Source: a virus (taxonomy: Duplodnaviria; Heunggongvirae; Uroviricota; Caudoviricetes). Taken from it: 64,000 bases of DNA. Every line of letters starts with the position of its first letter. The stretch's first letter is position 1. Location: IMG/VR virus record IMGVR_UViG_2609460125_000009; one strand, written 5' to 3'. Positions 2,795 to 60,046 of the stretch are shown here, in pieces. Both the position numbers and the translations under genes were made by a program. Below the pieces are notes generated by a model that had not been told where the DNA came from, ran no database searches, and worked only from the letters and a program-made list of their open reading frames with translations.

Positions 2795-2849
2795 GTGTAA
2801 TTAGCTTAATCAATCAGTTGATAATGGCGGTCACAATTTGATTCTTTTC

Positions 2850-3720
2850 TATAAGAATCCGTTGATCGCCACTACTCTTCTTCCATACCTGCAATCACAC
2901 CTTTAAATATCAATAAGTTATAGTTGTTTATACAATCAAGAAAACAACTGAATAACAGATCAACGAAACATCAACGCTTTCACCCGATTTGGTCTAAAAA
3001 ATTGACGTATTCACACATCACTTCTTATACCCGTAATTCTACGCAGCAGACAGCGCCACAGCGTCCAATTTTCACCACAGACGACCCAACACACTACCAA
3101 CAAAAACACACGCTCAAAATCGCTCCCGTTGCGTTACACAACCATATAAACAACTTATTTTCAGGCATAACAAAACAACTAAATAACACACATGCCATTC
3201 CCCAAAACAACCAACCTCTTTATGGCAGGCTACCGAAAAGACCCACCTCTTCTCCCCAGGCTACCGGACAACCAACCTAACTTTCACAGGCAATCCGAAA
3301 ACATTCATACGCGCGATACCCACGACACGCCATTACCCAAACAGCGAAGAAACACCAGAATCACTGAAACCCCAACGAAGCCTGTAACCGCAAGGTTTCT
3401 CTCAATCCCAAAAGACACGAAACATAACAATCACGGGAAACGCCATTACCCAATACACGAATAACTACAAAAGCCTTTCACACACTCCAGACAAACAACT
3501 CAAACACAATAACGAAAGGAATCGCCCACCTGCCATTACTCCATACACGGAGAAGAACAATCACCAAAACGACGAGAACACCCCATAGAAGAACCACCGC
3601 AAAACGAACGAAACCACATACACCGACAGAGAGAACAACACACCCAATTCACAAACAGAAATAGTCGCCGCATAGAACGTTCTGGAAGGGGTGAGCATTA
3701 ACGCCTATAGAGAGGTTGAG
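2850..3720 (+). other. strongly A+C-skewed non-coding region with degenerate direct repeats
   Basis: G and T are scarce on the given strand; no ORF >=60 aa on the opposite strand; repeated GCCATTACCCAA and CAGGCTACCG units. Confidence 0.6.
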
Positions 3721-3787
3721 ACAGATAAAACACGAAGAAAACACAACATGTATAGCGAACAAGACAGGTATGTATAAGTGGGGAGGG

Positions 3788-3811
3788 AAGGAGGGGTGTC
3801 GCCTCCTTTTT
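3788..3811 (+). terminator. terminator-like hairpin
   Basis: AAGGAGG…CCTCCTT stem followed by TTTTT. Confidence 0.4.
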
Positions 3812-3894
3812 CGTATTTATTCAACTCCTGATTTTATCCCCCGTAACACCCCTACGGTCAGCCTTCGATCCATACAGGGAAAAGGTTGCATCCC

Positions 3895-4015
3895 GCTACA
3901 GAAACGGCTGGGTTGCCTTCGGGGAACGGCTGGAGGTTTTCAGGGAAACGGTCGAGTTGCCTGTGTGGATTTCGGGAAAAGGCTCGATGCCGGTTCAGGA
4001 ACGGTGGAGTACCGG
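3895..4015. repeat. iteron-like direct repeats (GGGAAACGGC-type, ~21 bp period)
   Basis: Five tandem units: AGAAACGGCTGG, GGGAACGGCTGG, GGGAAACGGTCG, GGGAAAAGGCTCG, AGGAACGGTGG. Confidence 0.6.
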
Positions 4016-4341
4016 TATAGCGAGAGGGAGAGTTGCGGCTATCCACCTGTAATGTGCGGGAAGAAGAGAGGCGCTCACGTGCAGGCGGACTAACTTACCG
4101 TTGGACTCCCTCTGAATGCCCAGTTACAGCGTAATTGTGCCAGACAGCCAACGGGTCACAATCGATTTCAGTAGGTTTTCGGGGAGATGATTATTCTGCC
4201 CACCAGCCACCTTCGGCCACTAAATCAGAATAATGTAAAAAGTGTTCTCGGTACTGAACCTGAAAACTCACTGCCAAAACCACATTCACCGGAATAAAAT
4301 CCTTTTTCGCCTGTGCGTTATTGCGATAATAACACCATCAA

Positions 4342-4356
4342 GAAAACATGTTGTTT
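4342..4356. promoter_or_regulatory. motif family 1 site GAAAACATGTTGTTT
   Basis: Palindrome downstream of a GATAAT -10-like hexamer and upstream of the 4369 ORF. Confidence 0.5.
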
Positions 4357-4368
4357 AAGGATTGCTTT

Positions 4369-4698
4369 ATGTTTGCAAATATCGACATCAACCAAATCAA
4401 GAAATTAACTCAAAAAGAGTTTGACCAGTTCTATGAGCTGGAAGGTTGGTCTTCCACTCTGATTAATTCAAGATGGGTGCTGGAGCTGATGACTCGTGAT
4501 GATGCACCTGCTTTGATGATCAGCGACCTGGGTGAAGATGCTGACTTTATGGATATGAGCGAATTTTGTGTGGACACATACAACCGCAGCCAGAAGTACT
4601 ACTTCACATGCGATAGCGAAAATGACGTGATTTCTAAGGTCTATCTTCACCTCGTCCAGCATTGGGACGTTCAGGAGTTTCTTGAGGTATTCGCGTAA
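4369..4698 (+). CDS. hypothetical early protein
   Basis: ORF with AAGGA RBS; ATG 4369 preferred because the ATG at 4348 lies inside the operator. Confidence 0.45.
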   Translation: MFANIDINQIKKLTQKEFDQFYELEGWSSTLINSRWVLELMTRDDAPALMISDLGEDADFMDMSEFCVDTYNRSQKYYFTCDSENDVISKVYLHLVQHWDVQEFLEVFA

Positions 4699-4707
4699 TC
4701 CCAACCA

Positions 4708-4733
4708 AAGCCAGCATTGCTGGCTTAATTTCT
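4708..4733 (+). terminator. rho-independent terminator-like hairpin
   Basis: AAGCCAGC…GCTGGCTT stem. Confidence 0.5.
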
Positions 4734-4825
4734 CTATAGCCGCAGGGAAGAACCTGCATATCGCTCATGCACCTGATCATTATGCTTTGTAGCCGTTTTC
4801 TTATTGGTATTATTTACGCCATTGA

Positions 4826-4840
4826 GAAAACAAGTTGTTT
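4826..4840. promoter_or_regulatory. motif family 1 site GAAAACAAGTTGTTT
   Basis: Palindrome immediately upstream of the RBS of the 4852 ORF. Confidence 0.5.
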
Positions 4841-4851
4841 ACGGAGTTGTG

Positions 4852-5163
4852 ATGAAAAAATCATTGGTTCTTGGTCTGGACAAAGACCAGAAGAGAAAAG
4901 AGAAGCCTGCGCTGGTTGCTCAATTAACTTTGCTGGACATCGTTGCCAATGGAACCTCTATTCGTCTGTTCCGTGAAACAGCGGTGTCTTTCGATAAAAA
5001 CACCTTTACTCGTTATGTAATGAATGTTCGTCGCCAGCGTGGAAAAGGCTGGATGGCATTTCAAAGAATGTGGCCGGAACATCAGCTCGAACTGGCTTTG
5101 ATGGAAGTTAACCGCGTGGCCCAGCAAGAAATTCAGAGAGCATCAGTGATGGCAATAGCCTGA
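4852..5163 (+). CDS. hypothetical early protein (basic)
   Basis: ORF with GGAG RBS. Confidence 0.45.
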   Translation: MKKSLVLGLDKDQKRKEKPALVAQLTLLDIVANGTSIRLFRETAVSFDKNTFTRYVMNVRRQRGKGWMAFQRMWPEHQLELALMEVNRVAQQEIQRASVMAIA

Positions 5164-5197
5164 TAATGTGCAAGTGGTAATTAGTCGACAGTACGAC

Positions 5198-5226
5198 AGC
5201 CCCGCCATCCTTACGGGGCTTTTTTG
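5198..5226 (+). terminator. rho-independent terminator
   Basis: AGCCCCG…CGGGGCT stem followed by TTTTTT. Confidence 0.7.
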
Positions 5227-5230
5227 TATT

Positions 5231-5246
5231 GTAAGTACATACTTAC
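5231..5246. promoter_or_regulatory. motif family 2 palindrome GTAAGTACATACTTAC
   Basis: Perfect inverted repeat ~45 bp upstream of the 5290 ORF. Confidence 0.45.
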
Positions 5247-5289
5247 GATCATAGAATATAAAAATAACCAATACACTACGGAGAGTGAA

Positions 5290-5685
5290 ATGACCGTTAA
5301 ACGCGAAAAACTGACAGTTGATGTTTACTATGCCTCTGAAACCGCCGAAGGTAAGAATGTGGCAAAAATCACCGTTGTTACGTACAACACCGAAACTGGT
5401 GCCGAAGTACAGGCCAGTACGATCGTGCGTAAAGGTGATGCCTCCGGCGGCGAGTACGCGACTCAATACCAGTCCATTCTCGATGCAACTGACCCGCTGC
5501 TGCTGAAAATCGAGAACTACTTCCGCCAGGTTGATGAAGAGGTGTTTGAAACCATGATGAATATGGTTAACACCGTATTCGCCTCCAGCCTGAACACCAG
5601 CACCACCTGGATTGGCCAGTACGGTCTGCGCATTACCTCTGGCATTCCTGCCGACACCTTAATCCCTGAAAGCGTATTCGCTTAA
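5290..5685 (+). CDS. hypothetical protein
   Basis: ORF with GGAGAG RBS. Confidence 0.45.
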   Translation: MTVKREKLTVDVYYASETAEGKNVAKITVVTYNTETGAEVQASTIVRKGDASGGEYATQYQSILDATDPLLLKIENYFRQVDEEVFETMMNMVNTVFASSLNTSTTWIGQYGLRITSGIPADTLIPESVFA

Positions 5686-5695
5686 TCCTCTTTAA

Positions 5696-5722
5696 ATGGC
5701 GCGTAAACCGCGCCATTTTATT
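5696..5722 (+). terminator. rho-independent terminator
   Basis: ATGGCGCG…CGCGCCAT stem followed by TTTTATT. Confidence 0.65.
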
Positions 5723-5731
5723 AAGCCCGAT

Positions 5732-5746
5732 AACAATTTGTTTTCT
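5732..5746. promoter_or_regulatory. motif family 1 site AACAATTTGTTTTC
   Basis: Palindrome upstream of the 5803 ORF. Confidence 0.45.
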
Positions 5747-5802
5747 GCCTTATCTGATTTGTGAAAATGATTTCACTGAAGCAACTTAATAAGGAAACCA
5801 TC

Positions 5803-6177
5803 ATGGGACTTGATATCTATATCGAGACACAGCCTAAAAACGATCTGAATAACGAGGCATCCAGAAAGCGGGTTGCTTACTTCCGTAAGTTCAATGCGCT
5901 CGTTGGGTGGATGGAGCGCAACGTAGGTGAAGTCGAAAATTGTGAGCTTTTAGAATTAACGATGAATGACATTTGTTTTCTGAAGGCTCATTTGATGCAC
6001 ATAAACGAAAGTAATTGCGAAGAGTACTTGCCTACCCGGGAAGGTTTTTTCTTCGGCAGTCAGGAGTACGATGAAGGTTACTGGCATGATGTGGGGGAGT
6101 TGAAAGAGCTTGTGGAAGATCTGATTAAGAACCACGACTTTCACAATAACAGACTGACCTTCTGCGCCTGGTGGTAA
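5803..6177 (+). CDS. hypothetical early protein
   Basis: ORF with AAGGAAACC RBS; the longer frame from 5761 would start at GTG. Confidence 0.45.
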   Translation: MGLDIYIETQPKNDLNNEASRKRVAYFRKFNALVGWMERNVGEVENCELLELTMNDICFLKAHLMHINESNCEEYLPTREGFFFGSQEYDEGYWHDVGELKELVEDLIKNHDFHNNRLTFCAWW

Positions 6178-6179
6178 AT

Positions 6180-6323
6180 ATGGGCGATTTCAAGAAACGC
6201 CTGAAGGAGAGAGCCGAGATGGTCAGAAAGCGAAACGCCTCTTCTGTCATCAGATACGCAAGGCAGTTTAGTCGCAACAACAAATCAGTTGAGGAAAAGA
6301 TCCTTAGCGTAATCGGGCGATAA
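6180..6323 (+). CDS. small basic hypothetical protein (47 aa)
   Basis: Short ORF starting 2 nt after the stop of the previous gene; not in the supplied track because <60 aa. Confidence 0.3.
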   Translation: MGDFKKRLKERAEMVRKRNASSVIRYARQFSRNNKSVEEKILSVIGR

Positions 6324-6330
6324 TTATTAA

Positions 6331-6350
6331 GGCCACCAGCATTGGTGGTC
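6331..6350 (+). terminator. terminator-like hairpin GGCCACCAGCATTGGTGGTC
   Basis: Stem-loop without a strong T-run; near-identical copy at 6800. Confidence 0.4.
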
Positions 6351-6478
6351 TTAAATGACTTTTAATAACCGAAGGTTAGTTTGAAACCTGGCTATCAACT
6401 TCCAGAACCTTTCTTGTGTATTCAGCCTGTATTAACTTCTTTTATGCCTTATCTACACTGCGATAATTACACCAACAA

Positions 6479-6493
6479 GAAAACAACATGTTT
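6479..6493. promoter_or_regulatory. motif family 1 site GAAAACAACATGTTT
   Basis: Preceded by the conserved CGATAATTACACCAACAA promoter-like block. Confidence 0.5.
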
Positions 6494-6506
6494 ACGCAGT
6501 GAGGAT

Positions 6507-6794
6507 ATGCTCATGACTGATTTCACCATTACCCCTAAAGCACAAAATGTATTCCTTGAATCATGGCTGGACTTGCCGGAAACAGAACAGCAAGAAATGG
6601 ATCATGTGGATTATGACGAGCAGGTAAGCACGCGATTCTTCCACTTTGAGGGATGCGTTTACGACATTGCCGACTTCATGCGAGATGACCGCTTCCCTGA
6701 ATGGCACGCAAGCTATCCACTAAACGCCTTTGCCATGCTGATGATCCGTGTGGATGATTCAGGGGATACCATCGACATCGGTCTGCTCCACTAA
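6507..6794 (+). CDS. hypothetical early protein (acidic)
   Basis: ORF with GAGGAT RBS; start at 6507 or 6513. Confidence 0.45.
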   Translation: MLMTDFTITPKAQNVFLESWLDLPETEQQEMDHVDYDEQVSTRFFHFEGCVYDIADFMRDDRFPEWHASYPLNAFAMLMIRVDDSGDTIDIGLLH

Positions 6795-6799
6795 AGATT

Positions 6800-6823
6800 A
6801 AGGCCACCAATGCTGGTGGCCTT
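6800..6823 (+). terminator. terminator-like hairpin AAGGCCACCAATGCTGGTGGCCTT
   Basis: Perfect stem; near-identical to the 6331 hairpin. Confidence 0.45.
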
Positions 6824-6963
6824 AAATGACCATCCTGTTTCCCGCAGGCTAAAAACACCAACCTCTTACCTCCAGGCAACCGACAAACCCACCTGTTCCC
6901 GTCCGGCTACCGCAACTTTCCACTTTGACGCCTTATTCGTACAACGATAATTAACACCAACAA

Positions 6964-6977
6964 GAAAACAATTTGTT
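6964..6977. promoter_or_regulatory. motif family 1 site GAAAACAATTTGTT
   Basis: Preceded by the CGATAATTAACACCAACAA block. Confidence 0.5.
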
Positions 6978-6998
6978 ATTTACGATAAGGAATTAATC

Positions 6999-7481: not shown

Positions 7482-7494
7482 CTGAGAAGAGGGC

Positions 7495-7620
7495 CAGAAA
7501 CGGCCCTTTCTCTACAGCCACCAGCTGCCGCAGGGAAATTTTCAGAAACGGCGAGGAACGTATTCATGAGCCGACGGGAAACGGCCAGGATTTTTTCGGG
7601 AAACGGCTGCATTCGCCTTT
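7495..7620. repeat. second iteron-like array (AGAAACGGCC / GGGAAACGGC units)
   Basis: Four or more direct repeats of the same core as the 3895-4015 array. Confidence 0.55.
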
Positions 7621-7725: not shown

Positions 7726-7780
7726 TTTCGTAGCGTAATCACATATGTGATTAAGTGGTGTGATTATGTGAAAAATCACG
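7726..7780. promoter_or_regulatory. cluster of perfect palindromes (TAATCACATATGTGATTA; ATTATGTG-N12-CACATAAT)
   Basis: Inverted repeats in a convergent intergenic region. Confidence 0.4.
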
Positions 7781-9846: not shown

Positions 9847-10371
9847 TCAAAAAGGCAAAATTCGTTCAACCCAATCGAACAAAACAACTATTTTTCTACC
9901 GTTCTCGACACGTAGTGTAACCTGACAAGCATCTGCGCCTGCTGACACCCCCTCAATTTCACGGCCATCCGCCATGTACACCCTTATAGATTTGTTTGCT
10001 TTGTAGGCTTGGTTGCAAATTGCAAAAAAATCGCGGCGTGATGGCCGATTATCGACATAATCAGGGTGAACTGTTAATCGACCTTTGAAATCGTGAGCGA
10101 TACTGTCAACCACACCTGATTCAATTGTACTAATGCGTTCAAGTGGGAGCCTTATACGATTTTCTTTGTCAAAAGGGGCTGGGCAAAGGTCAACTTTGTT
10201 GCGAGATGGCATGAGGCCATAAACGTACATGCAAAACGCCTGACCATCTTCGAGAGTGACCCTTACAGGAATTTGTTCTCTGCGCCAGAACATCAGTAGT
10301 TTTTCAACGTTAGTGTAATCTCGCGGCAAGAGTTCAGCTTGGATACCGTAGGTAATATCTTTGGTTGTCAT
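9847..10371 (-). CDS. hypothetical protein
   Basis: Start moved to the internal ATG (MTTKDITYG…) to avoid overlap with the upstream lipoprotein gene. Confidence 0.4.
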   Translation of the reverse strand: MTTKDITYGIQAELLPRDYTNVEKLLMFWRREQIPVRVTLEDGQAFCMYVYGLMPSRNKVDLCPAPFDKENRIRLPLERISTIESGVVDSIAHDFKGRLTVHPDYVDNRPSRRDFFAICNQAYKANKSIRVYMADGREIEGVSAGADACQVTLRVENGRKIVVLFDWVERILPF

Positions 10372-10375
10372 GTCA

Positions 10376-10798
10376 TCACAGAGTTGTTGGCAGAATGTCG
10401 ATGTTACCAGAATTGCTGGTGAACACCCTGAACGCTTTTGTGTCTCCATTCTTCAGAGTCGTTTCTCGCTCTTGACGAGCGGGGTTTAGAGCACATAAAC
10501 CTGCACCTTCAAGAGATGCACCCACAATTAATTCTCCGGCATTTAAATGGAAAGTCGCTTTTTCGCCTGTAGCCAGTTTTGCGACAGTTTCGCCATTGAT
10601 GAAAATGGAAGCATCACATCCAGCTCCTACAAAACCTGTGTCTCTCATTACCACCAACGTAGCTGGCGCTGCGCTTTGATACTTGAACACTTTGGCCTGC
10701 GGTGCTGGTTTGGCGTCATGGATTGATATTGGACGTGATTGGCACGCGGTAAGCATCAACACTGGTAACGTTAGTAGAGGGAGAAGCGAGTATTTCAT
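10376..10798 (-). CDS. putative lipoprotein
   Basis: Signal peptide with lipobox (…VLMLTAC); start at MKYSLL. Confidence 0.5.
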   Translation of the reverse strand: MKYSLLPLLTLPVLMLTACQSRPISIHDAKPAPQAKVFKYQSAAPATLVVMRDTGFVGAGCDASIFINGETVAKLATGEKATFHLNAGELIVGASLEGAGLCALNPARQERETTLKNGDTKAFRVFTSNSGNIDILPTTL

Positions 10799-12752: not shown

Positions 12753-12772
12753 ATAAGTAAGTGATTACTTAG
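12753..12772. promoter_or_regulatory. motif family 2 palindrome ATAAGTAAGTGATTACTTAG in a divergent promoter region
   Basis: Inverted repeat between the helicase operon (-) and the ParB-like operon (+). Confidence 0.45.
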
Positions 12773-12789
12773 TGGATTGTAGCAATAAA

Positions 12790-13470
12790 ATGGATGTAAA
12801 AATCACGATTTTGCAGGTTGATGTTGCCAACCTTCGCCCGAATACCTGGAACACCAATTCGGTTGGTGCGCAGAATTTTGAAAAACTGAAAGGTTCTATC
12901 GAAAAATTGGGCTTTTTTAAGCCAATTTTGGCTCGTGAACTTGAAGATGGATTTTTTGAAATCCTCGGCGGCGAACATCGCTGGCGTGCTGCTATTGAGC
13001 AAGGAATTTCAACGGTTCCGGTGCTTTCTGTGGGCAAAATTAGCGATGTCGTAGCTAAACAGATGTCACTGGTGGACAACGAGCGATACGGTGAAGACGA
13101 CCAAATCGCATTGCAACGCTTCATTGAAGAAATTCAGTCAGAACTTGACTATCAACTGTCTGAAATCGCCCCGTATGACGACGAAATCTCGATGGTTTTA
13201 GCAAAAGAGGCGGCAATCGACCTTGAAGCACTGGAGGCGTTGTCTCGTGGTAGTGATGAGCCTGTCGATACCGACAAACGAGAGAAAACCGAACGTGTGG
13301 GTGCGGAACATCAGACCATGCGCTTCAAAGTAACTTTCGATGCGTCAGATCGTGTTGCAGAAACCATAAAAAACATCATCAAAGAGCAGGCTATTAACAC
13401 CGGTAATGAAATGGAGAACGCTGGTGAGGCTCTGGTGTGGCTGGTCGACTACTACAAGGAGCGTATGTAA
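12790..13470 (+). CDS. ParB/Srx-fold nuclease-like domain protein 1
   Basis: ParB N-terminal-like motif (…FEILGGEHRWRAA…); start could be 12772. Confidence 0.6.
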   Translation: MDVKITILQVDVANLRPNTWNTNSVGAQNFEKLKGSIEKLGFFKPILARELEDGFFEILGGEHRWRAAIEQGISTVPVLSVGKISDVVAKQMSLVDNERYGEDDQIALQRFIEEIQSELDYQLSEIAPYDDEISMVLAKEAAIDLEALEALSRGSDEPVDTDKREKTERVGAEHQTMRFKVTFDASDRVAETIKNIIKEQAINTGNEMENAGEALVWLVDYYKERM

Positions 13471-14138
13471 TGACCAAAAAGTTTGAAATCGTATATCGCG
13501 ACCCGGCAGATCTTATTCCCTATGAGATGAATGCCAAAAAGCATGATGAACAGCAGATCCGAGATCTGGCCGCAGCCATTAAAAAGCGCGGATTTGACCA
13601 GCCAATTACGGTCGATAAGAACGACGTAATTATTACTGGCCACGGCCGCCGTGAGGCTGCAATTTTTGCTGGACTTGAGCGCGTACCGGTTATTGTTCGC
13701 GATGATCTCAGTGATGACGAGGTTCGTGCGAAGCGCCTTGAAGATAACCGACTTGCCAGCATTGATTACGATGCAATTAAGCTACAGAAAGAGCTTGAGT
13801 CGCTTGTTCTGGACGATATCGAGGTTTTCGGCTTTGAAGAGCGTGAGTTGAATGTTCTCGTTGGCAGCATGACAGAAGAAATGGACACCGACTCGCTAGT
13901 TATCGATCTTGGCGAAGAAACTAAACGACAGAAGGATGAACACACCGAGATCAGTCGTGAAGTTGCAGCGGAAGAAGTACGTGTTGTCGACGTATTGGGC
14001 TTTAAAACGCTTCCTGCTGGCTCTGCCATTGTTGTTGGTGATTTGCTTGCCCACATGGAAGAAATGACGGGAGAAAGCGGGGTAGACGCATTTGTGGCAT
14101 ATGCGGAGAAGATCTCTTCCGGGGAGATGGCTGCATGA
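13470..14138 (+). CDS. ParB/Srx-fold nuclease-like domain protein 2
   Basis: ParB-like motif (…VIITGHGRREAA…); start overlaps the upstream stop (TAATG). Confidence 0.6.
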   Translation: MTKKFEIVYRDPADLIPYEMNAKKHDEQQIRDLAAAIKKRGFDQPITVDKNDVIITGHGRREAAIFAGLERVPVIVRDDLSDDEVRAKRLEDNRLASIDYDAIKLQKELESLVLDDIEVFGFEERELNVLVGSMTEEMDTDSLVIDLGEETKRQKDEHTEISREVAAEEVRVVDVLGFKTLPAGSAIVVGDLLAHMEEMTGESGVDAFVAYAEKISSGEMAA

Positions 14139-14800
14139 GCAAATACATCATCAACGTATCGTTTCAGACTCGCGTAAATAAAACCACGCGCACGTTGGAA
14201 ATCGCTGAGTCGTTCGGGCTTGGCCTGGACGAAAAAGAGTGGACGCTTTACGACAATCTGGAGCTGGAAGTGAAGCAGGGCGATGTGGTGTACATCACCG
14301 GCCAATCCGGTTCCGGCAAATCCGTTGTGCTGCGCGAGTTGCAACGACAGATGAAGGATGAAGGGCTGTCTGTAGCCTCCATCGATGATTTTACCTTCGA
14401 TAATGAGGTTAACGTCATCGATCAGTTGGGCAAAACGACCAGCGATGCGCTTGGGTTGTTATCTATGGCTGGTCTGAACGATGCATATCTGTTTGTTCGC
14501 AAGCCTTCTGAAATGTCAGACGGTCAGAAATATCGTCTCAAGATTGCCAAATTGATTGAGTCAGGCGCTAAAGTGTGGGCTGCTGACGAGTTCGGTGCTG
14601 TTCTAGACCGTGTAACCGCTCAGGTTGTGGCATCTAACCTCCAGCGTGCCGCTCGAAAGGTTGGTGCGACGGTAATGGTGGCGACGACTCACGAAGACCT
14701 GAAGAACGCGCTGCGCCCGGATATGCAGATCACCAAGCACTACAAAGAACGCGTGAAGGTGGAATATCACAATGGTAGTCATGATGAGGTTCATTTATGA
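14135..14800 (+). CDS. stand-alone ABC-type ATPase domain protein
   Basis: Walker A GQSGSGKS, ABC-signature-like MSDGQKYRL, Walker B AADEFG; start overlaps the upstream stop. Confidence 0.6.
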   Translation: MSKYIINVSFQTRVNKTTRTLEIAESFGLGLDEKEWTLYDNLELEVKQGDVVYITGQSGSGKSVVLRELQRQMKDEGLSVASIDDFTFDNEVNVIDQLGKTTSDALGLLSMAGLNDAYLFVRKPSEMSDGQKYRLKIAKLIESGAKVWAADEFGAVLDRVTAQVVASNLQRAARKVGATVMVATTHEDLKNALRPDMQITKHYKERVKVEYHNGSHDEVHL

Positions 14801-15687
14801 CGGACATCATCATTAAACGCTACCGCCCTGAAGAGTTTCCGCGTCATCTGGACTTTCTGGAGCGAATGACTGTCACAAAGGGAACTGTAGAGGACTGGCA
14901 CGCTCTTAAGTCGCTTCACTACAAAACAGACGGCAAACCTTTCGCGCCAACTTACTATCGCTGCGAACTTGATGACCGTCTGGTGGGCGTCGTGGTTATG
15001 GCTTACCCGAAACTACTGCTGGCACCTCGCCACCGCATGTTTCCTAAGTTGAAACCAACCACTAATACCACCGTGGCTAACCAGTACTGGGGTCGGTACG
15101 TGAATAACAACTTTGCGGTGATCAGTCGCTCAGTTGTGGATACTCAGTATCGTGGCGTAGGCGTCTCTTATCGAATGATTAACCTGGTTAGCAGGATGCA
15201 TGACCGGCCAATCATTGAGATCCAGTCCTCGATGAGCAAATACAATCCCTTCGCCATGAAAGCAGGGTTTAAGTTCATCCGCCCTGAGCGACCGAAGAGC
15301 TATGAAAGTGCACTGCGTGTATTCCAGCGCCATTTCCGTTCCGACCCGGGTGATAACGAGGCGATCGTCAAAGAGTTGTTCGCAATGAGCGAGTCTCGTC
15401 GTCGCCGTGCACTGCGTGATCTGGTGGCGGACTACCACAAGAACAGTTCCCTGGCAAAAGCTGGGCGGAATCGTGGCACGACGATTCAGGACATTGCCGA
15501 CAGTCTGGTGGACGAGGCCAGCATTGTGAAGCTGCTCAAGGACATTCACAACCTGAGCTTTACGTCTCCGTTGTATGGTGTGTACCGAAACCCTGACTTT
15601 GGCCGTCGACTGCCTGACACGCTGCCACTGCTGGCATTCGACAAACAACCTTTGGATAAACCGTTAGAAATTGCTTTACCGGCATAA
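14797..15687 (+). CDS. hypothetical protein with GNAT-like acyl-CoA binding motif
   Basis: Q-x-x-G-x-G motif (VVDTQYRGVGVSYRMINLV) after a hydrophobic strand; translationally coupled to the ATPase gene. Confidence 0.45.
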   Translation: MTDIIIKRYRPEEFPRHLDFLERMTVTKGTVEDWHALKSLHYKTDGKPFAPTYYRCELDDRLVGVVVMAYPKLLLAPRHRMFPKLKPTTNTTVANQYWGRYVNNNFAVISRSVVDTQYRGVGVSYRMINLVSRMHDRPIIEIQSSMSKYNPFAMKAGFKFIRPERPKSYESALRVFQRHFRSDPGDNEAIVKELFAMSESRRRRALRDLVADYHKNSSLAKAGRNRGTTIQDIADSLVDEASIVKLLKDIHNLSFTSPLYGVYRNPDFGRRLPDTLPLLAFDKQPLDKPLEIALPA

Positions 15688-16042: not shown

Positions 16043-16104
16043 CTTCGTAAGACATGCCAGACCTAATTAAACACCCCAGAAAACAAGTTGGTTAGCAGAT
16101 GCAG

Positions 16105-16119
16105 TAAACAAGTTGTTTT
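16105..16119. promoter_or_regulatory. motif family 1 site TAAACAAGTTGTTTT (degenerate second copy at 16078-16093)
   Basis: Upstream of the terminase small subunit gene; followed by a GAGCGC…GCGCTC hairpin. Confidence 0.5.
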
Positions 16120-25045: not shown

Positions 25046-25061
25046 GTAAGTATATACTTAC
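25046..25061. promoter_or_regulatory. motif family 2 palindrome GTAAGTATATACTTAC
   Basis: Perfect inverted repeat ~50 bp upstream of the major tail gene. Confidence 0.5.
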
Positions 25062-25111
25062 TATTAGCGCAATGAATGCGTAGAATTAACGGAAAAAGGA
25101 GTTTTCCATCA

Positions 25112-45189: not shown

Positions 45190-45325
45190 ACCACAAACAG
45201 CCAGCGTGTTGTTCTGCGATGGGGCTGAGCCTATCTATATCAGCAATAATGATGTAATGACTGAAGAAACCGAACGCCAAATCCTTTTTCACAATACGAT
45301 GGGAGAGAGGGTTTGTGGTTGGTGA
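45140..45325 (+). CDS. o-spanin (Rz1-like lipoprotein), overlapping the i-spanin gene in another frame
   Basis: Signal peptide with lipobox ISGC; begins inside the i-spanin gene and extends beyond it. Confidence 0.55.
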   Translation: MLLPFIVSCMISGCVIKPQTASVLFCDGAEPIYISNNDVMTEETERQILFHNTMGERVCGW

Positions 45326-45357
45326 TGTCGAAGTTCCCCTCAAATGAGGGGAACACA

Positions 45358-45879
45358 TTATTCTTCGAACAATTTTTCGATAGATTTTGTAGGATAGAAC
45401 AAAGAACGCTCGTTGTTACCAACCAGCTGGATAAAGCCTAAACTTTTATAAAACGCCTTGGCTTTGTCATTTAACGCCTCAACGAAAAGTCCATGAATGC
45501 CTACAGCAAGAGATGCATTGTACACAACGCGCATTGCATGTGTTACAAGCATTGAGCCAAATCCTTGACCTTGAAGGGACTTGTCCAAAGCCAGCCTACC
45601 CAAAGTAACACTTGGAACATTCCGATAAGGAACCTTCTTTTGTTTGCTTCTTGAAGGTAAGGACTCCTTTTCAAAACAACTACCTGACAAAGTGTAATAT
45701 CCTAACACTTTTGGCCTTTCTTCTTGAGTGCAAAGCACATAAGCACGAAGAATTTTTCCCTCATGCTGCCTTTTTAAGTGGTTGGCTAAAAAGGCGTTTA
45801 GTGACTCTTCGCCGCAATCAAAACCGTTTAGATCATAATCTTTCTCTCCAGAGAAAATCTCTATCGTTGTATTGCTCAC
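45358..45879 (-). CDS. GNAT-family acetyltransferase toxin (TacT/KacT/AtaT-like)
   Basis: GNAT motif QGQGFGSMLV; directly downstream of an RHH antitoxin-like gene. Confidence 0.7.
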   Translation of the reverse strand: MSNTTIEIFSGEKDYDLNGFDCGEESLNAFLANHLKRQHEGKILRAYVLCTQEERPKVLGYYTLSGSCFEKESLPSRSKQKKVPYRNVPSVTLGRLALDKSLQGQGFGSMLVTHAMRVVYNASLAVGIHGLFVEALNDKAKAFYKSLGFIQLVGNNERSLFYPTKSIEKLFEE

Positions 45880-45886
45880 GAGTAAA

Positions 45887-46156
45887 CTACTCCATGCTTT
45901 TCAGACGATCAGCAGCTCGTTTCAGCTTGTCGTTCGGTGCCGGAGGATTGCTTATAGCGTCCATAACCAGATTCCAGGATTCTTCATTCAGAACTAGTCT
46001 ACGGTGTTGCTCTATAACTTTCACGGCACGTTCAGATGCACTGCTAACCATAAACTGAGTAATGCTCTGGTTAGACATTGCGGCAGCTTCCTCGATGATG
46101 CTTTTATCGTCATCGGTTAATCTCAAATCGATGCGCTGCTTTTTTAGTGCTGACAT
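45887..46156 (-). CDS. RHH antitoxin (DUF1778-like)
   Basis: Small ORF with AGGAGG RBS; 8-bp gap to the toxin gene. Confidence 0.6.
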   Translation of the reverse strand: MSALKKQRIDLRLTDDDKSIIEEAAAMSNQSITQFMVSSASERAVKVIEQHRRLVLNEESWNLVMDAISNPPAPNDKLKRAADRLKSME

Positions 46157-46424
46157 GTATTCCTCCTGATGGCCGTGATGTAGGAAGGCCATCAATCTCC
46201 TCTGTTCAAACTGAGTTTTCGACTCAAAAATTACTTTAAAAGGCTATAGCCCATTACGTGTGCATTATCAAATTGTGTACGGCATAACACCGTACTTGTA
46301 ATATAGAGGTCATTGTTACTTTTTTCAACAGACAAATACAAGCTATGATTGCCAATTGTTAATCACAACCTACCATTTAACCTTTACACCGCAGCCGTAG
46401 GCATTTAGGCTATATCACATATAA

Positions 46425-46440
46425 GAAAACAAGTTGTTTC
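46425..46440. promoter_or_regulatory. motif family 1 site GAAAACAAGTTGTTTC
   Basis: Palindrome ~35 bp upstream of the ParA gene. Confidence 0.5.
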
Positions 46441-46474
46441 AGACGATAATTATATACGCAAAGGGAACTCTCCA

Positions 46475-47143
46475 ATGACCAAGATCTTTGTGGTTGGCGG
46501 CACAAAGGGCGGGCCTGGCAAATCCACCCTTGCCCAGCAAATTGCCGTTTGCCTTAAAGTCAAAAAGAAGAAGAAGGTTTATATCACTGATATAGATATT
46601 CAGCGCACGACAACAAGCTGGTGTGAAGACCGTCGACAGAACGAAGACCTTGAGCTGATTCCTTTTGCATACGTTCAGGATGACATCATTAAGCACCTAA
46701 AATCGCTTCAGGGTAGAGCTGAGTATGTAGTGGTAGATGCTGGTGGCTTCGACTCCGAAATTCAGCGACAAGCGATGCTGATGGCTGACGTTATCATTAT
46801 CCCGCTGCGTCCTAAGCGTCGTGATTTGAAATCTTTACGTGACATCGATCCTATTATCGACAATGTTCGCAATGTAAACGATAAAGTGAAGGTCCGCGCG
46901 GTCATGAACCAGTGCCCGGCTTTGCCATCACAAGTGTCTCGCATTCTGGCGGCTAAAGAGATTGTTGAGACGTTTGGAATCGAGTCTGCGCCAGTCAATC
47001 TGTATAACCGCAACGTCTATGATGATGCGGAAGAGTCTGGTCGTTCTATCTTTGAAATGACCGGTAGCGAGCGCGACAAAAAGGCGGAAGCCGAGTTTGA
47101 AGAATTTGTAGATTATCTGTTGAGTCTGGAGGAAGAAGAATAA
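46475..47143 (+). CDS. ParA-family partition ATPase
   Basis: Deviant Walker A GGTKGGPGKST. Confidence 0.8.
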   Translation: MTKIFVVGGTKGGPGKSTLAQQIAVCLKVKKKKKVYITDIDIQRTTTSWCEDRRQNEDLELIPFAYVQDDIIKHLKSLQGRAEYVVVDAGGFDSEIQRQAMLMADVIIIPLRPKRRDLKSLRDIDPIIDNVRNVNDKVKVRAVMNQCPALPSQVSRILAAKEIVETFGIESAPVNLYNRNVYDDAEESGRSIFEMTGSERDKKAEAEFEEFVDYLLSLEEEE

Positions 47144-47502
47144 TGTCCATGAAAATGGGTGACCTAGCAAAGCGCAAAGAGCCTGATGCACCGGCTAAGA
47201 ACACAACTCCTTTGCGCCAACCAGTCAGACCACAGGGACGCCCGACTCGTGGCAAAGAGAAAATTAAAAGCCGCACAATGTCACTGGAGGACGAATACTT
47301 CGAACTGCTGGAGATGATGAAGTTCATCCCTCGCTTCGAGAAGTTCACTCGTTCTGACGTGATTCGAGCAGCCATTTTCCATCTGGCAGAGAAGTCACCG
47401 CAGGAAATCGAGGACATCGTGAAATTGAATGAGGCGATCACCGCTGCCGATGTCACGATGCGTACCGATGAAATCAAACGAGAGTTGATGAAGAAAGGTT
47501 AA
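47143..47502 (+). CDS. partition adaptor / centromere-binding protein (ParG-like RHH, putative)
   Basis: Small ORF translationally coupled to ParA (TAATG); basic disordered N-terminus. Confidence 0.5.
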   Translation: MSMKMGDLAKRKEPDAPAKNTTPLRQPVRPQGRPTRGKEKIKSRTMSLEDEYFELLEMMKFIPRFEKFTRSDVIRAAIFHLAEKSPQEIEDIVKLNEAITAADVTMRTDEIKRELMKKG

Positions 47503-47554
47503 AAATCATGCATTGGCGCGTACATTGCGCCAATGCATAACTACAGTGTCAGCT

Positions 47555-48322
47555 TTATGCCGCGCTAACACTATGTTCAGTCCTAACCACCCCAACCTTC
47601 ACAAAAGGGCTACCGTAGCTTGGTGGCTTCTTGATTAATTTGCCTACATACAGTTTTCTAATATGCTCATCGGCTATTCTGCCAACAAATTCATAACGTT
47701 TTGTGTCGGGGCCAAGAGCTATATCCCTTGTAAAGTACTGCTGAGAACCGGCTTTGACCCAGCATTCAATCTGATAAACTTCCATTATCAGCCCACCATA
47801 TGTAGCGTAGGCATATTTGAGATTCTCGTCTCTTGGAACCTTTGCCCATACGCCACGCGTAGCTTCATATAATGCCAGAGCGGACATTCCTGACTTGTAG
47901 GTGCTGTTTAGCAGGAAGGCAAGACCGGCGTGCTCAGGAGCAATTTCAGTTTCCTCTTGCAGCACTAAGTGATGGTAGGCGTCCAGTGATATTCTGCCCA
48001 TCATGGAACCACTTCCTCGTACCTTATTCGTAAGCTCTCCGACCCCCATAAGGTCGATGCATGTCGCCTCAACAAGTTTGGCTGTGGTTTCATCCATACC
48101 ATGACGAAGTATATCTATGCCTAATTTTTTATTAGCCAAAAGTTCTTTGATCCGCATGGATTTGGGAGAGTCATCGGGATACTTGATGTGATCGAGACAA
48201 CGAGTCGATTTGCCTTTTCCTATGTAAAACGGTCTTTTCATCTTGTCTTCTGTATCATAGAGACAGTAAACATAGTATTTAGCCTTATCCAATGATCTCG
48301 CGTATACCGATAAATCGTCCAT
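47555..48322 (-). CDS. GIY-YIG nuclease domain protein
   Basis: N-terminal YVYCLYD…FYIGKGK…R…H motif; C-terminal domain unassigned. Confidence 0.55.
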   Translation of the reverse strand: MDDLSVYARSLDKAKYYVYCLYDTEDKMKRPFYIGKGKSTRCLDHIKYPDDSPKSMRIKELLANKKLGIDILRHGMDETTAKLVEATCIDLMGVGELTNKVRGSGSMMGRISLDAYHHLVLQEETEIAPEHAGLAFLLNSTYKSGMSALALYEATRGVWAKVPRDENLKYAYATYGGLIMEVYQIECWVKAGSQQYFTRDIALGPDTKRYEFVGRIADEHIRKLYVGKLIKKPPSYGSPFVKVGVVRTEHSVSAA

Positions 48323-48433
48323 TATTGCATCTCTTTGCTACTGACTAATGCGTTCTATTTTACACATAAGTTTTTAATCAATTTAACAGGCTCAAAGTGT
48401 AGAGCTTCTGGGCGTCTAAGACGACAAGTTATG

Positions 48434-48488
48434 CCTGCTTCTGTATATATAAATAATAAGTAACTTATTAAATATATACGGAAGCAGG
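48434..48488. repeat. 55-bp hairpin element, copy 2
   Basis: Identical to 15988-16042. Confidence 0.7.
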
Positions 48489-48595
48489 TCTTTTAAAAGA
48501 CACCACCAGAACAACTCCCTTCCGTTTCCACTTCCAAAAACTGCCACCAGTCGCTATCATCCGCTCATTGTGATAAGTAAGTAACTACCTACCAG

Positions 48596-49345
48596 GTGAG
48601 CCACATGAGCCAAATCTTTTTCGATACCATCGACAACGACCAGTACGACTTCATGACAGAGTGGAATACCGCTGTTATGGACAAGTGGGTCGCTGAAAAC
48701 ATTGGTTTGTCGCGCTGTAAAGACGAGGCTGAACTCTTCGAGACGAAGTGGTTTGATTACCGCGACATGCATCCTCTCATGGCCACCTGTCTTTTTACGG
48801 AGGCATACAAACGTCAGTACTCAAATATCATGCTGACGCACGGTCGCGAACACTTTGAAACAGCTCCGTTCACCACCGGGTTAAAACGCCTGCCTTATCA
48901 GGAGTTGTCGACTGCCAATAAAACGTCGCTATGGAAAGCACGCCAGTTTGCGGATCGCTATTGCTGCTCATACGACTACTTTATCTCCACCGTTCTTTCC
49001 GCAGCTGCACGACGGCTGTGGGACAAGCTGCCGCGCCCACAGCATTTGTGGCAGCCAGAGCTGATTGAGATATTCGAAGAGAAATTAGCCAGACGCGCAA
49101 CAACCCGTCTGGATGACTCTCTCGTTAGCTTTAAGCATATGGGAGACATGCAGTTCAACCCGATTCAGGAAAGCTATTTTGAGTGGATTCTGGAGCGTTT
49201 ACGCACCATCCCCCGCAGCAAGCGCATACGCGCAATTTTCTCCGCTATCTGGCTAATGGAAATCGTTCCAGAGCGCCTTATTTCCGCCCACTTTCCAGAA
49301 GAACTGGAAGAAGCACGGCGGTTTATTGATCCCCTATCTAATTAA
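48596..49345 (+). CDS. hypothetical protein upstream of the helicase (candidate initiator or loader)
   Basis: 249-aa ORF; function suggested by position only. Confidence 0.4.
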   Translation: MSHMSQIFFDTIDNDQYDFMTEWNTAVMDKWVAENIGLSRCKDEAELFETKWFDYRDMHPLMATCLFTEAYKRQYSNIMLTHGREHFETAPFTTGLKRLPYQELSTANKTSLWKARQFADRYCCSYDYFISTVLSAAARRLWDKLPRPQHLWQPELIEIFEEKLARRATTRLDDSLVSFKHMGDMQFNPIQESYFEWILERLRTIPRSKRIRAIFSAIWLMEIVPERLISAHFPEELEEARRFIDPLSN

Positions 49346-49354: not shown

Positions 49355-49369
49355 GAAAACAATTTGTTT
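49355..49369. promoter_or_regulatory. motif family 1 site GAAAACAATTTGTTT
   Basis: Palindrome ~20 bp upstream of the helicase gene. Confidence 0.5.
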
Positions 49370-55518: not shown

Positions 55519-55538
55519 AAACATGGTGATAAGTATTT

Positions 55539-55560
55539 ACTTACTTATCTTTTATGTATA
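55539..55560. promoter_or_regulatory. motif family 2 site GATAAGTATTTACTTACTTATC
   Basis: Inverted repeat at the start of the tRNA-containing non-coding region. Confidence 0.45.
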
Positions 55561-56294: not shown

Positions 56295-56369
56295 GATGGT
56301 GTAGCTCAGCGGTAGAGCAGTTGGCTGTTAACCAACTGGTCGGTGGTTCGAATCCACCCACCATCGCCA
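56295..56369 (+). tRNA. tRNA-Asn (anticodon GTT)
   Basis: Hand-folded cloverleaf: acceptor GATGGTG/CACCATC, anticodon loop CTGTTAA, T-loop TTCGAAT, 3' CCA encoded. Confidence 0.8.
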
Positions 56370-56374
56370 ATTTA

Positions 56375-56461
56375 GGGGAGTTAGTCCGTAGAGGTAGCGG
56401 GGTAGACTGTAAATCTACTGTCATTGCGACTCGGGTGGTTCGACTCCATCACTCCCCACCA
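56375..56461 (+). tRNA. tRNA-Tyr (anticodon GTA), long variable arm
   Basis: Acceptor GGGGAGT/ACTCCCC, anticodon stem-loop GTAGA-CTGTAAA-TCTAC, long variable arm; D-arm pairing is atypical. Confidence 0.6.
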
Positions 56462-56465
56462 AATT

Positions 56466-56541
56466 GCCGGTTTAGCTCAGTTGGTAGAGCGCCTGCCTTG
56501 TAAGCAGGATGTCAGCGGTTCGATCCCGTTAACCGGCACCA
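56466..56541 (+). tRNA. tRNA-Thr (anticodon TGT)
   Basis: Acceptor GCCGGTT/AACCGGC, D-arm GCTC-AGTTGGTA-GAGC, anticodon loop CTTGTAA, T-loop TTCGATC. Confidence 0.8.
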
Positions 56542-58016: not shown

Positions 58017-59120
58017 ATGAAAAATAGCTTTGACAGAGCACGCGCTGCGGAGAACACCTCAAAAGAGGCGATTGAGTATCTCGAAAGAGCATCTCAAATG
58101 CAGGCCGTTATGATCTCCCAGGTCAGCAATGACATGAGATTCTCGGACGCATTCATGTTATTCACTCGCTTATCTCTGCTGATAACAAGACGTCGGCCAG
58201 AGATCGCTGTTCATTGTATTTTGATACATGTTTTGCCGCACATTGCCGATGTAAAAGTAAGTGATATTAATAGGTTCATGGTGAACCAACTGGTCAACCC
58301 ACTAATACTGGATGGCAAAATTGTTATGGGTCGCCGCGTTTTCTCTCTGATGAAGCAGTTCCTCAGCTGGTGCGCCTTCCAGGGGATGATCGACGTGTCA
58401 CCGTTAAACGATATGTCACTTAACAAAGTTGCCGGTGGCGCAAAGCCCACACCTCGCGAGCGGAAGCTGACCGACGCAGAGGTATGGGTGTTCTGGAATA
58501 TATGGGACTACTTCAATGTGTGTGCTGGTACAAAATGGGCGGCCAGGCTATGTCTTGTATCCGCAAGACGACCTGACGAAGTACTGCGGGCTAAAAAAAG
58601 TGAGTTCAATCTTAAGCGTGGGGTTTGGAATCAAGGCAAGAGGAACAAATCTGCCCGTGAGCATTCTCTGCCTTTAAGCTCATTAATGCGCACTTGTATT
58701 GAAGAGTTGTTCGAATATGGTAAAGACAGCCAGTGGCTCGTGCCTTCGAATAAAAAAATCGGGAAAGACCTTCCTATGTCTAAAGTGGCAATAGCCCAGG
58801 CATTACGTCGTATTCTGGAACGACCAGAACTGATGGAGCTTGAGCCATTTACACCCCGAGATTTGCGCCGTACTGCGCGTAGTTACTTCCCAGCATTAGG
58901 CATAAGCCAGGAGGTATCACGTAAAATCATGAACCACAGTCTTGAGGGGATAGATCGGGTCTACGACCGGCACGATTATATGGACGAGATGCGAGACGCC
59001 TTAGAAAGTTTCTCGACGTACATCGCATCAATCGTAGAGCAACCGGATTTAGACGAAATTGACCACAAATTTAAGGGAGATCGTCTATCAACAGAGCTTA
59101 TTCGTGTAAATTTTTCATAG
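58017..59120 (+). CDS. tyrosine recombinase / integrase
   Basis: C-terminal catalytic pattern RDLRRTARS…H…VYDRH; N-terminal start uncertain. Confidence 0.6.
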   Translation: MKNSFDRARAAENTSKEAIEYLERASQMQAVMISQVSNDMRFSDAFMLFTRLSLLITRRRPEIAVHCILIHVLPHIADVKVSDINRFMVNQLVNPLILDGKIVMGRRVFSLMKQFLSWCAFQGMIDVSPLNDMSLNKVAGGAKPTPRERKLTDAEVWVFWNIWDYFNVCAGTKWAARLCLVSARRPDEVLRAKKSEFNLKRGVWNQGKRNKSAREHSLPLSSLMRTCIEELFEYGKDSQWLVPSNKKIGKDLPMSKVAIAQALRRILERPELMELEPFTPRDLRRTARSYFPALGISQEVSRKIMNHSLEGIDRVYDRHDYMDEMRDALESFSTYIASIVEQPDLDEIDHKFKGDRLSTELIRVNFS

Positions 59121-59501
59121 AGACTTTATGGCCTCAACAACCTTTTGTGATGCGCCTTTCTCTTTACCGAATCGCTCGTTATATGCAGCAAGAACCTGTT
59201 TTTCGTCCTCGTTAAGAGGAGCAGTGCCTTCTTTGTATAAAAATGCTGCGAGTTCGGGTTGGCGTTCTTCCAGCACCATCATCATAAGACGACTTGGCTC
59301 AATACCCAGTGCCAGCGCCAGCGGACGAACCTTATCGATAGGCAAAGGAATTTTGCCGCTTTTAATTAAAGAAAGGTTGTTGGCGTTTTTATACCCAATT
59401 GTTTTGGCTATCTGGGCCTGGCTCATAGGTGAGGATTCAATCAACCCTGCGATAAAAGCAGCGTAGCGACTTTCTATAAATTCAATCTTGTTATCAGACA
59501 T
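59115..59501 (-). CDS. XRE-family HTH transcriptional repressor
   Basis: HTH (…SQAQIAKTIGYKNANNLSLIKSG…); divergent from a small plus-strand ORF. Confidence 0.65.
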   Translation of the reverse strand: MSDNKIEFIESRYAAFIAGLIESSPMSQAQIAKTIGYKNANNLSLIKSGKIPLPIDKVRPLALALGIEPSRLMMMVLEERQPELAAFLYKEGTAPLNEDEKQVLAAYNERFGKEKGASQKVVEAIKSL

Positions 59502-59752
59502 GGTTACAACCTTTGCGCGTTCAATTCTCTCTGGTAAGTGCTTACCGATATTACATCAAAGGTTAGGGTTGTAAAGCTATTATCATTTTTTTCGATAGGC
59601 ACTTAAAAGACCGGTTAAAGGCCATTGCACGGAGAAAAATTAGCCCAAAATAGGTAAGAAAATCAACTTGCATATGATATGAATGTATTCAGTATTGATA
59701 CAAATTTTAGTAGTATTCCTTACCATAGTATAAGTTAGAATGGATTGATTGA

Positions 59753-59965: not shown

Positions 59966-60032
59966 CCCCTCTTCTCCCTGCGCGAATGGCTTAGTTCCCT
60001 GTTCGCGCAGTGCTACATTAAACACACTAGTA

Positions 60033-60046
60033 AATAATTTGTTTTC
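60033..60046. promoter_or_regulatory. motif family 1 half-site AATAATTTGTTTTC
   Basis: Upstream of the CobT-like gene. Confidence 0.4.

Follow-up and report, generated by a model that had tools for sequence, protein, structure and literature searches.

Do the two genes around positions 46425–47502 of the viral record IMGVR_UViG_2609460125_000009 (IMG/VR; Caudoviricetes) form a plasmid partition module, and if so, of which type and on what kind of element? The whole stretch of DNA analysed, 64,000 nt with coordinates counted from its first letter, is referred to here as the window. A first-pass annotation of this stretch had proposed a ParA ATPase with a deviant Walker A motif, followed by a small coupled protein of DNA-binding-like character and preceded by a palindrome of a recurring kind (family 1), and it had read this arrangement as a capacity for episomal maintenance, in tension with a chromosomal metG junction at the window start. 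The analysis presented here indicates that the module is very likely a type Ib partition operon of an SSU5-like phage-plasmid. It comprises the following features:

46369–46444, plus strand: conserved upstream block of 76 bp, a candidate promoter and operator and possibly the centromere; its left edge is the start of the conserved module
46383–46411, plus strand: candidate sigma-70 promoter, TTTACA (46383–46388), 17-nt spacer, TAGGCT (46406–46411)
46427–46439, plus strand: family-1 palindrome AAACAA-G-TTGTTT (13 bp, AAACAAGTTGTTT), 15 nt past the candidate −10 hexamer, with the parA ATG a further 35 nt downstream
46475–47143, plus strand: parA, 222 aa, assigned from its Walker A motif and its Pfam, PHROG and ParF matches to the type Ib (small, without N-terminal extension) ATPases of the ParA/MinD superfamily
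47143–47502, plus strand: partner gene, 119 aa, encoding a putative centromere-binding protein, as judged from the one-base overlap with parA and from family alignments

The N-terminus of ParA (MTKIFVVGGTKGGPGKST) contains GGTKGGPGKST at residues 8–18, within which KGGPGKST (residues 11–18, with the signature lysine K11) is the deviant Walker A box that characterizes the ParA/MinD superfamily, and the Walker A' (ITDIDIQ) and Walker B (VVVDAGG) motifs are also legible in the translation. The protein matches AAA_31 (7e-14), MipZ, CbiA and ParA-type models in Pfam (AAA_31, CbiA and the ParA-type models above their cut-offs) and phrog_164 'ParA-like partition protein' in PHROGs (1.8e-51). Additionally, it aligns with positions 6–202 of the 203 in the NCBIfam equivalog NF041546 'ParA family partition ATPase' (2e-33), of which it is a clear relative that scores below the equivalog cut-off (115.7 versus 180 bits). 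Among PDB sequences, its closest solved relative is ParF of TP228 (4dzz, 4.2e-10, residues 9–199), and a small pSM19035-type plasmid ParA is a further one. On account of its size, the lack of an N-terminal domain (the Walker A box begins at residue 8, and the alignment with the 206-aa ParF runs end to end) and its nearest relatives, the protein can be classed as a type Ib ParA.

In many E. coli plasmid records of RefSeq (PGAP) the same protein bears the product name 'division plane positioning ATPase MipZ', and the Pfam MipZ model does match it with 49.5 bits, so that a MipZ-like or other positioning ATPase could be considered in place of a partition protein. This match spans only positions 2–150 of the 262 in the profile and ranks under the generic AAA_31, whereas the best solved relative over the full length is ParF. 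Moreover, MipZ is an alphaproteobacterial chromosomal protein working with ParB, while the gene described here belongs to a phage-plasmid and has a coupled small partner; neither a full-length MipZ profile match nor an alphaproteobacterial chromosomal context was found for ParA. This alternative is regarded as highly improbable, together with the companion idea that the element is chromosomally integrated beside metG, which is taken up below, and the RefSeq name, explained by the partial Pfam match, is probably wrong.

The identity of the element was established by comparison with sequenced relatives. Over 1.36 kb around the par module, DNA identity reaches 99.5% with Escherichia phage CMS-2020a and 98% with both PhiR41_1 and Cyrano (the plasmid pLF82 of E. 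coli LF82), and drops to 86.5% with Salmonella phage SSU5 and about 80% with relatives from Klebsiella; CMS-2020a, Cyrano and PhiR41_1 are also matched by the opening 6 kb of the window. In the annotated relatives, genes for tail fibre, holin, endolysin and spanins are followed by parA and the partner gene and then by a hypothetical gene and those for helicase, primase and ligase; terminase, integrase and helix-turn-helix (HTH) repressor genes are also encoded in the window. The ParA-like partition protein gp33 of SSU5 and the ParA proteins of pHCM2, Cyrano/pLF82 and pWPMR2-type elements correspond to the same locus, with DNA 86.5–99.5% identical and genes in the same order. The window is an SSU5-like phage-plasmid throughout, a group that has already been described as plasmid-prophages and in which parA serves as a marker gene (PMC7969092; 10.1101/2025.09.12.675607). 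No experimental dissection of this partition locus turned up in the searchable literature, only its use for typing, and accounts of the nature of the partner, of the centromere or of the family-1 regulator were not found there either.

Of 5,426 complete E. coli genomes, 264 contain the par module, at 265 places in all and in every case in plasmid records of about 106–120 kb; no chromosomal copy was found in this set. In PLSDB, 797 plasmids from Klebsiella, Escherichia, Enterobacter, Salmonella, Citrobacter and other hosts encode the partner protein; they are mostly of about 105–120 kb and non-mobilizable (760 of the 797), and among the PLSDB matches listed the partner gene lies almost always beside an 'AAA family ATPase'. 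A copy number of 5.5 per cell has been measured for Cyrano (PMC9928086), whose RepA gene falls outside this window. The plasmid-like lifestyle attributed to the element is supported by its SSU5-like identity, by the plasmid-only records and by the Cyrano copy number; its capacity for plasmid maintenance was correctly recognized and is already known.

The supposed tension with a chromosomal junction disappears when metG itself is examined. Positions 1–1000 of the window are 99.9% identical to a metG on the 113-kb plasmid NZ_CP017847, which carries this par module too, whereas the window metG fragment (1–972) shows 92–93% identity to chromosomal metG, in alignments that end at base 973, the end of the gene. 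E. coli genomes have this metG paralogue at 220 plasmid places, and Cyrano, CMS-2020a and PhiR41_1 carry it together with its downstream genes. Thus metG is a plasmid-borne paralogue, the 'chromosomal junction' was an error, and, as metG is plasmid cargo, no integration junction should be inferred from it. The presence of a metG fragment at the window start was what could be said for an integrated element, and against that idea stand the plasmid origin of this metG and the plasmid-only distribution of the module. In Cyrano the gene adjoins one for an Mrp/ApbC-type ATPase (PF10609, 342 bits), which is labelled 'MinD' and is expressed in lysogeny; the pairing of a plasmid metG with this ATPase suggests that a block of host genes was captured long ago.

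The coupling of parA to the gene that follows it is direct: the TAA stop and the partner ATG overlap by one base (gaaTAATGtcc), and a GGAGGA lies 13 nt 5' of the partner-gene start. The same overlapping arrangement, a ParA of 221–240 aa and then a partner, is kept in 10 of 10 further loci from genome assemblies of other genera, which span Enterobacteriaceae and Morganellaceae (Buttiauxella, Kluyvera, Morganella, Photorhabdus, two Xenorhabdus and Moellerella being some of them) and among which partner identity falls as low as 40%. Both genes are expressed in lysogeny, with normalised reads of 49.8 for ParA and 89.1 for the partner against a background median of 9.8 in the Cyrano lysogen LF82 (S1 Table, PMC9928086). 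The small, coupled downstream gene typical of type Ib systems is therefore present, both in its overlap here and in the 10 other loci and in its joint expression with parA, and its product would most probably act as the centromere-binding adaptor of ParA. With respect to the first-pass annotation, the ATPase at 46475–47143 is borne out by KGGPGKST and by the Pfam, phrog_164 and ParF matches, the small coupled protein at 47143–47502 by the one-base overlap, and the family-1 palindrome does precede parA, at least as a matter of position; the 'DNA-binding-like' quality ascribed to the small protein is better worded as a prediction, the window protein having no Pfam match.

The Cyrano genome record gives a different account of the same gene, which is labelled 'RelE/ParE putative toxin' (OV696614, CYRAN_29) and counted as a moron toxin (PMC9928086), and from which the pair would be read as an addiction module. 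This proposal has no basis other than the OV696614 annotation and Table 1 of PMC9928086. No RelE/ParE match was found for the window protein or for its family in Pfam, NCBIfam, PHROGs, PADLOC or PDB sequences; the predicted secondary structure, a disordered basic N-terminus followed by helices, is not that of the alpha/beta RelE fold; and there is no adjacent antitoxin gene, the upstream neighbour being the ParA ATPase. We consider a toxin scarcely credible here, and the label probably wrong. PADLOC likewise returned no defence-system match for ParA or the partner.

What kind of protein would this adaptor be? Its family is tiny (25 clusters in a collection of 5.8 billion proteins, and 18 representatives at E ≤0.001 in a profile search among 1.84 billion proteins), the named members are all Enterobacterales, no distant homologues were located in viral contigs, and PHROGs places the protein in phrog_5111, a family annotated with no function. 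In the alignments, a conserved N-terminal G-x-L-x-K motif (MGDLAKR here) is followed by a variable acidic/proline-rich linker, by a basic RPQGRPTRGK, by the core SRTMSLEDE...FTRSDVIRAAI and finally by two further helices, and the family consensus reads S-R-T-x-S-x-E and then T/S-R-S-D-V-x-R-A-A. This pattern, an alternating polar/hydrophobic strand, a helix, a loop and a helix starting with T/S-R-S-D-x-I-R-x-A, is one that we take to resemble ribbon-helix-helix (RHH) proteins. RHH_1 (PF01402) is the top Pfam family for the partner family, matched by 7 of 15 members at the SRTMSLEDE...FTRSDVIRAAI segment, although always below threshold (the best member reaches E 0.005 and 17.1 bits versus a gathering score of 20.5). 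The window protein also weakly matches the RHH family aCcr1, and in hhalign its strand and first helix fall in register with six classical RHH proteins (Arc, Mnt, CopG, ParD, ParG and omega), although the alignments are not significant. On the other hand, phmmer and profile searches against PDB sequences gave chance matches only, hhalign against the neighbouring TacA antitoxin found nothing, and AlphaFold monomer models show a disordered or extended basic N-terminus and then helices only. Taken together, these sequence features lead us to lean, with some caution, towards a ribbon-helix-helix protein.

Additionally, the window encodes two proteins that could be proposed as partners of ParA on the strength of their domain:

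12772–13470 and 13437–14138: two tandem ParB_N-domain paralogues (Pfam ParB_N, 3.3e-13 and 1.5e-08)

Homologues of these proteins are called 'ParB' in Cyrano and in RefSeq, and together with the Pfam matches this would allow ParA to work with proteins encoded 33 kb away, the 119-aa reading frame then being unrelated to partition. In the Cyrano lysogen, however, the two ParB_N genes are silent (5.0 and 9.5 against the background of 9.8) while ParA and the partner are expressed, and together with an ABC-type ATPase gene they lie directly upstream of the terminase genes, a phage context whose arrangement is kept in Moellerella. In type Ib systems, the usual partner of a small ParA that lacks an N-terminal domain is a small protein encoded next to it, and the overlap of parA with the partner gene persists in two bacterial families. 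Being silent in the lysogen and located on the terminase side, the ParB_N proteins are rejected as partition partners in the prophage state, and the proposal as a whole is very unlikely. The cluster to which they belong (12772–15687) consists of the two paralogues, the ABC-type ATPase and a 296-aa protein without Pfam matches; it is silent in the lysogen and conserved in Moellerella, weakly matches, in PADLOC, mad3/mad8 and the N-terminal portion of a type II methyltransferase model, and probably belongs to the phage phase and not to partition.

If the 119-aa protein is the centromere-binding adaptor, a site in cis is expected, and the most suggestive DNA lies immediately upstream of parA. The block 46369–46444 is 93–97% identical in SSU5, Klebsiella, Kluyvera and Buttiauxella relatives, whereas the parA coding sequence is 77–84% and the 30-nt leader 57–83% identical in the same comparison; the block, more conserved than parA, is thus more strongly constrained than the coding sequence. 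PhiR41_1 and SSU5 have different genes on the left side of position 46369. A candidate sigma-70 promoter at 46383–46411 (TTTACA-17-TAGGCT) was read from the sequence and was not reported by a simple consensus scan; its layout of a −35 hexamer, 17 nt and TAGGCT is retained in both of the enterobacterial versions that diverge most. The block also holds TAGGC-N3-TAGGC and one palindrome, and 10-mers shared between the upstream region and the whole window recovered the family-1 element only. By analogy with type Ib systems, the centromere and the autoregulatory site would most likely lie inside 46369–46444. Two other candidates were discarded. The TAATCACA cluster at 7736–7770 shares ATCACATAT with the parA promoter and was rejected as centromere because it is missing in the SSU5 and Klebsiella relatives that retain the par genes, and the ATAAGGC repeats before parA in Morganellaceae correspond to the Shine-Dalgarno region and not to a common site. 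As a separate observation, the three TAATCACA copies at 7736–7770 (forward, reverse, reverse) and four copies of GAAACGGC-containing repeats at 7494–7607 occupy the same stretch of about 1 kb without long open reading frames, the left part of which is confined, among these elements, to the E. coli lineage; these repeats may be the 'iterons' mentioned in the first-pass annotation.

The palindrome in the upstream block belongs to a set that is dispersed over the window:

1057–6978, 16081–16118, 46427–46439, 49357–49369 and 60032–60044: family-1 sites in the window

The sequence AAACAANTTGTTT is present in 6 perfect and 7 one-mismatch copies, versus 0 and 0.3 in shuffles, and when both strands and up to 2 mismatches are allowed, 29 matches are counted versus 3.2 expected, a number reached by 0 of 100 shuffles; AGAAAACAA, with 10 copies, is the most over-represented 9-mer of the window. 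The copy at parA is unchanged in every enterobacterial relative. At the other family-1 sites, (A/T)AGA precedes AAACAANTTGTTT, a GATAAT-like hexamer lies 13 nt upstream with a TTGAC-like hexamer further up, and most sites have a plus-strand start codon 11–35 nt downstream. The genes behind them are small genes at 1–7 kb, the terminase operon (copies at 16081 and 16106), parA, a helicase gene (49357) and a gene at 60064; Cyrano has four more sites (58595, 70326, 80549 and 81278), and its sites also precede CYRAN_58, the RNR beta subunit gene, CYRAN_85 and CYRAN_87. In the Cyrano lysogen, the other family-1 genes are at or near the background of 9.8 (TerS 7.1, CYRAN_101 7.5, CYRAN_85 7.0, CYRAN_87 7.1 and helicase 21), and parA is about 5-fold above it despite its family-1 site (PMC9928086). 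The simplest reading of this layout is that the family-1 elements are sigma-70 promoters with a common putative repressor operator over the transcription start, and that parA shares the layout yet escapes full repression. When the palindrome sequence was searched for in the literature, nothing but unrelated primers came up.

Could the partner itself be the protein that binds these palindromes? They number about 17–20 across the genome and would then serve as dispersed centromeres and operators, with the partner acting as a global repressor of lytic and early genes. The promoter of parA carries such a palindrome, and type Ib systems (TP228, pB171, pSM19035) are as a rule autoregulated by their centromere-binding protein. 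The strong over-representation of the motif, with 13 sites in the window and four elsewhere in Cyrano, points in the same direction, as do the expression of the partner, one of few candidate DNA-binding proteins expressed in the lysogen while other family-1 genes are near background, and the lack of a family-1 site in the intergenic region beside the annotated HTH repressor gene (59115–59501). Conversely, parA carries a single palindrome and is expressed although it has the site, and the HTH repressor, with a 43%-identical homologue in Moellerella, is an equally good candidate binder. The Moellerella phage-plasmid keeps the parA-partner pair, and the strand predicted to read DNA is nearly the same in its partner (KSRTVSMEDEY versus KSRTMSLEDEY), but no copy of the family-1 or of any other over-represented palindrome occurs in its 100 kb, which holds different repeated motifs. 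Since Moellerella has homologues of both the partner and the HTH repressor without the palindromes, the comparison argues, weakly, against both candidates. Binding of the family-1 sites by the partner appears unlikely on this evidence, and the fuller proposal that the partner founds an undescribed centromere-binding family and also silences early, replication and packaging promoters through family-1 sites doubling as centromeres is, if anything, slightly more doubtful. A second recurring palindrome, (G)TAAGTA-N2-4-TACTTA(C), was observed in three copies (5231–5250, 25046–25065 and 55530–55545), and GGTAAGTGCTTACC lies at 59533–59546 beside the HTH repressor gene; these may be the operators of the HTH repressor.

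Returning to the type Ib partition operon, the following mechanism can be proposed. The operon would be read from a family-1-type promoter, with the 13-bp palindrome just downstream of the −10 hexamer, so as to yield the small ParA and the 119-aa adaptor from one transcript by coupled translation. The adaptor would dimerise via its probable ribbon-helix-helix core and bind a cis site, most likely within the 76-bp block upstream of parA, while its flexible N-terminal tail (MGDLAKR) would stimulate nucleoid-bound ParA-ATP. In this manner the copies of a prophage-plasmid of about 108 kb, present at about 5 per cell, would be moved apart before division as by ParF/ParG of TP228. Two search results weigh against this proposal: a structure search of the partner models against the PDB found nothing, and no repeat array of the parH or parC kind was detected within 45300–48700 or elsewhere, the repeats and tandem repeats around the operon not exceeding chance.

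Among known systems, the closest likeness is with ParF-ParG-parH of the Salmonella plasmid TP228, which also combines a small ParA (about 206–222 aa) without N-terminal DNA-binding domain, a small partner gene directly downstream whose product has a flexible N-terminal tail and a ribbon-helix-helix core (probable in the present case), and a regulatory site upstream of parA (a candidate here). The partner differs from ParG (76 aa) by its length of 119 aa, by two additional helices at the C-terminus and by a longer loop separating the helices of the core; it has no detectable sequence similarity to ParG, the upstream region lacks the short repeats of parH, and the arginine-finger tail of ParG has at most the conserved G-x-L-x-K motif as its counterpart. 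The role would be the same as that of parABS (type Ia) in P1, another low-copy prophage-plasmid, but ParA of P1 has about 400 aa and an N-terminal regulatory DNA-binding domain, whereas the ParA described here is small; P1 ParB is a ParB_N/HTH protein with parS downstream, while the present partner is unrelated to ParB and its likely cis site is upstream. In delta-omega of pSM19035, KorB-IncC of RK2 and SopAB of N15, the centromere-binding protein also acts on dispersed operators, and N15 has four dispersed SopB sites. The presence of the 13-bp palindrome at many promoters of the window recalls KorB operators and the dispersed N15 centromeres. Unlike the RK2 and N15 systems, in which KorB and SopB are ParB_N/HTH proteins, the partner is small and RHH-like, and unlike all three systems, a relative (that of Moellerella) retains the partner yet has no palindromes.

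Compared with SSU5, PhiR41_1 and pEC881_2, only the cargo around the operon differs; here it consists of a TacAT-like pair on the upstream side and, downstream, of a GIY-YIG gene of PD-T4-3-like type:

45358–46195, minus strand: TacA-like antitoxin (45887–46195) and GNAT toxin of TacT/KacT-like type (45358–45879), an adjacent stability module outside the par operon
47508–47538, unstranded: hairpin and likely terminator with perfect 12-bp arms, ATGCATTGGCGC-N7-GCGCCAATGCAT, between the converging partner and GIY-YIG genes

The upstream pair is recognized by its Pfam TacA1 (8.6e-26) and GNAT domains; it is present in Cyrano, and other genes take its place in PhiR41_1, SSU5 and pEC881_2. The corresponding Cyrano genes rank with those most strongly expressed during lysogeny (344 and 592 versus the background of 9.8; PMC9928086). 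Downstream, a T-run follows the hairpin on the minus strand, and the hairpin is missing in Cyrano, SSU5 and the Klebsiella relatives; as their match stops at about 47500, it belongs to the variable downstream insert. The GIY-YIG protein (47555–48322, minus strand), whose gene converges on the par operon, gives a near full-length match to the single-gene anti-phage defence PD-T4-3 (PADLOC PDLC04031, 1.5e-23) and matches Pfam LEM-3_GIY-YIG, and its slot is occupied by a DUF2971 protein in Cyrano and SSU5 and by a 564-aa protein in pEC881_2. Both slots being variable, the par operon is flanked by exchangeable cargo on both sides.

The main value of these results lies in correction, given that the window is wholly plasmid-prophage and that two public annotations, that of CYRAN_29 and the name 'MipZ', are probably wrong. 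SSU5-like phage-plasmids are widespread and include pHCM2 of S. Typhi, pWPMR2 of S. sonnei and Klebsiella elements carrying KPC and OXA-48, so that identification of the centromere and of the protein binding the family-1 operators would open ways of curing these elements and of foreseeing incompatibility among them. Two further features of the window were noted. The gene at 9847–10449 (minus strand) matches the full profile of Pfam Flag1_repress (repressor of phase-1 flagellin, FljA-like; 1.7e-82), an unexpected cargo for a phage-plasmid that is annotated in Cyrano only as 'transcriptional regulator', and three tandem tRNA genes at 56295–56538 (Rfam RF00005) match the tRNA-Asn, tRNA-Thr and tRNA-Ser cluster of Cyrano.

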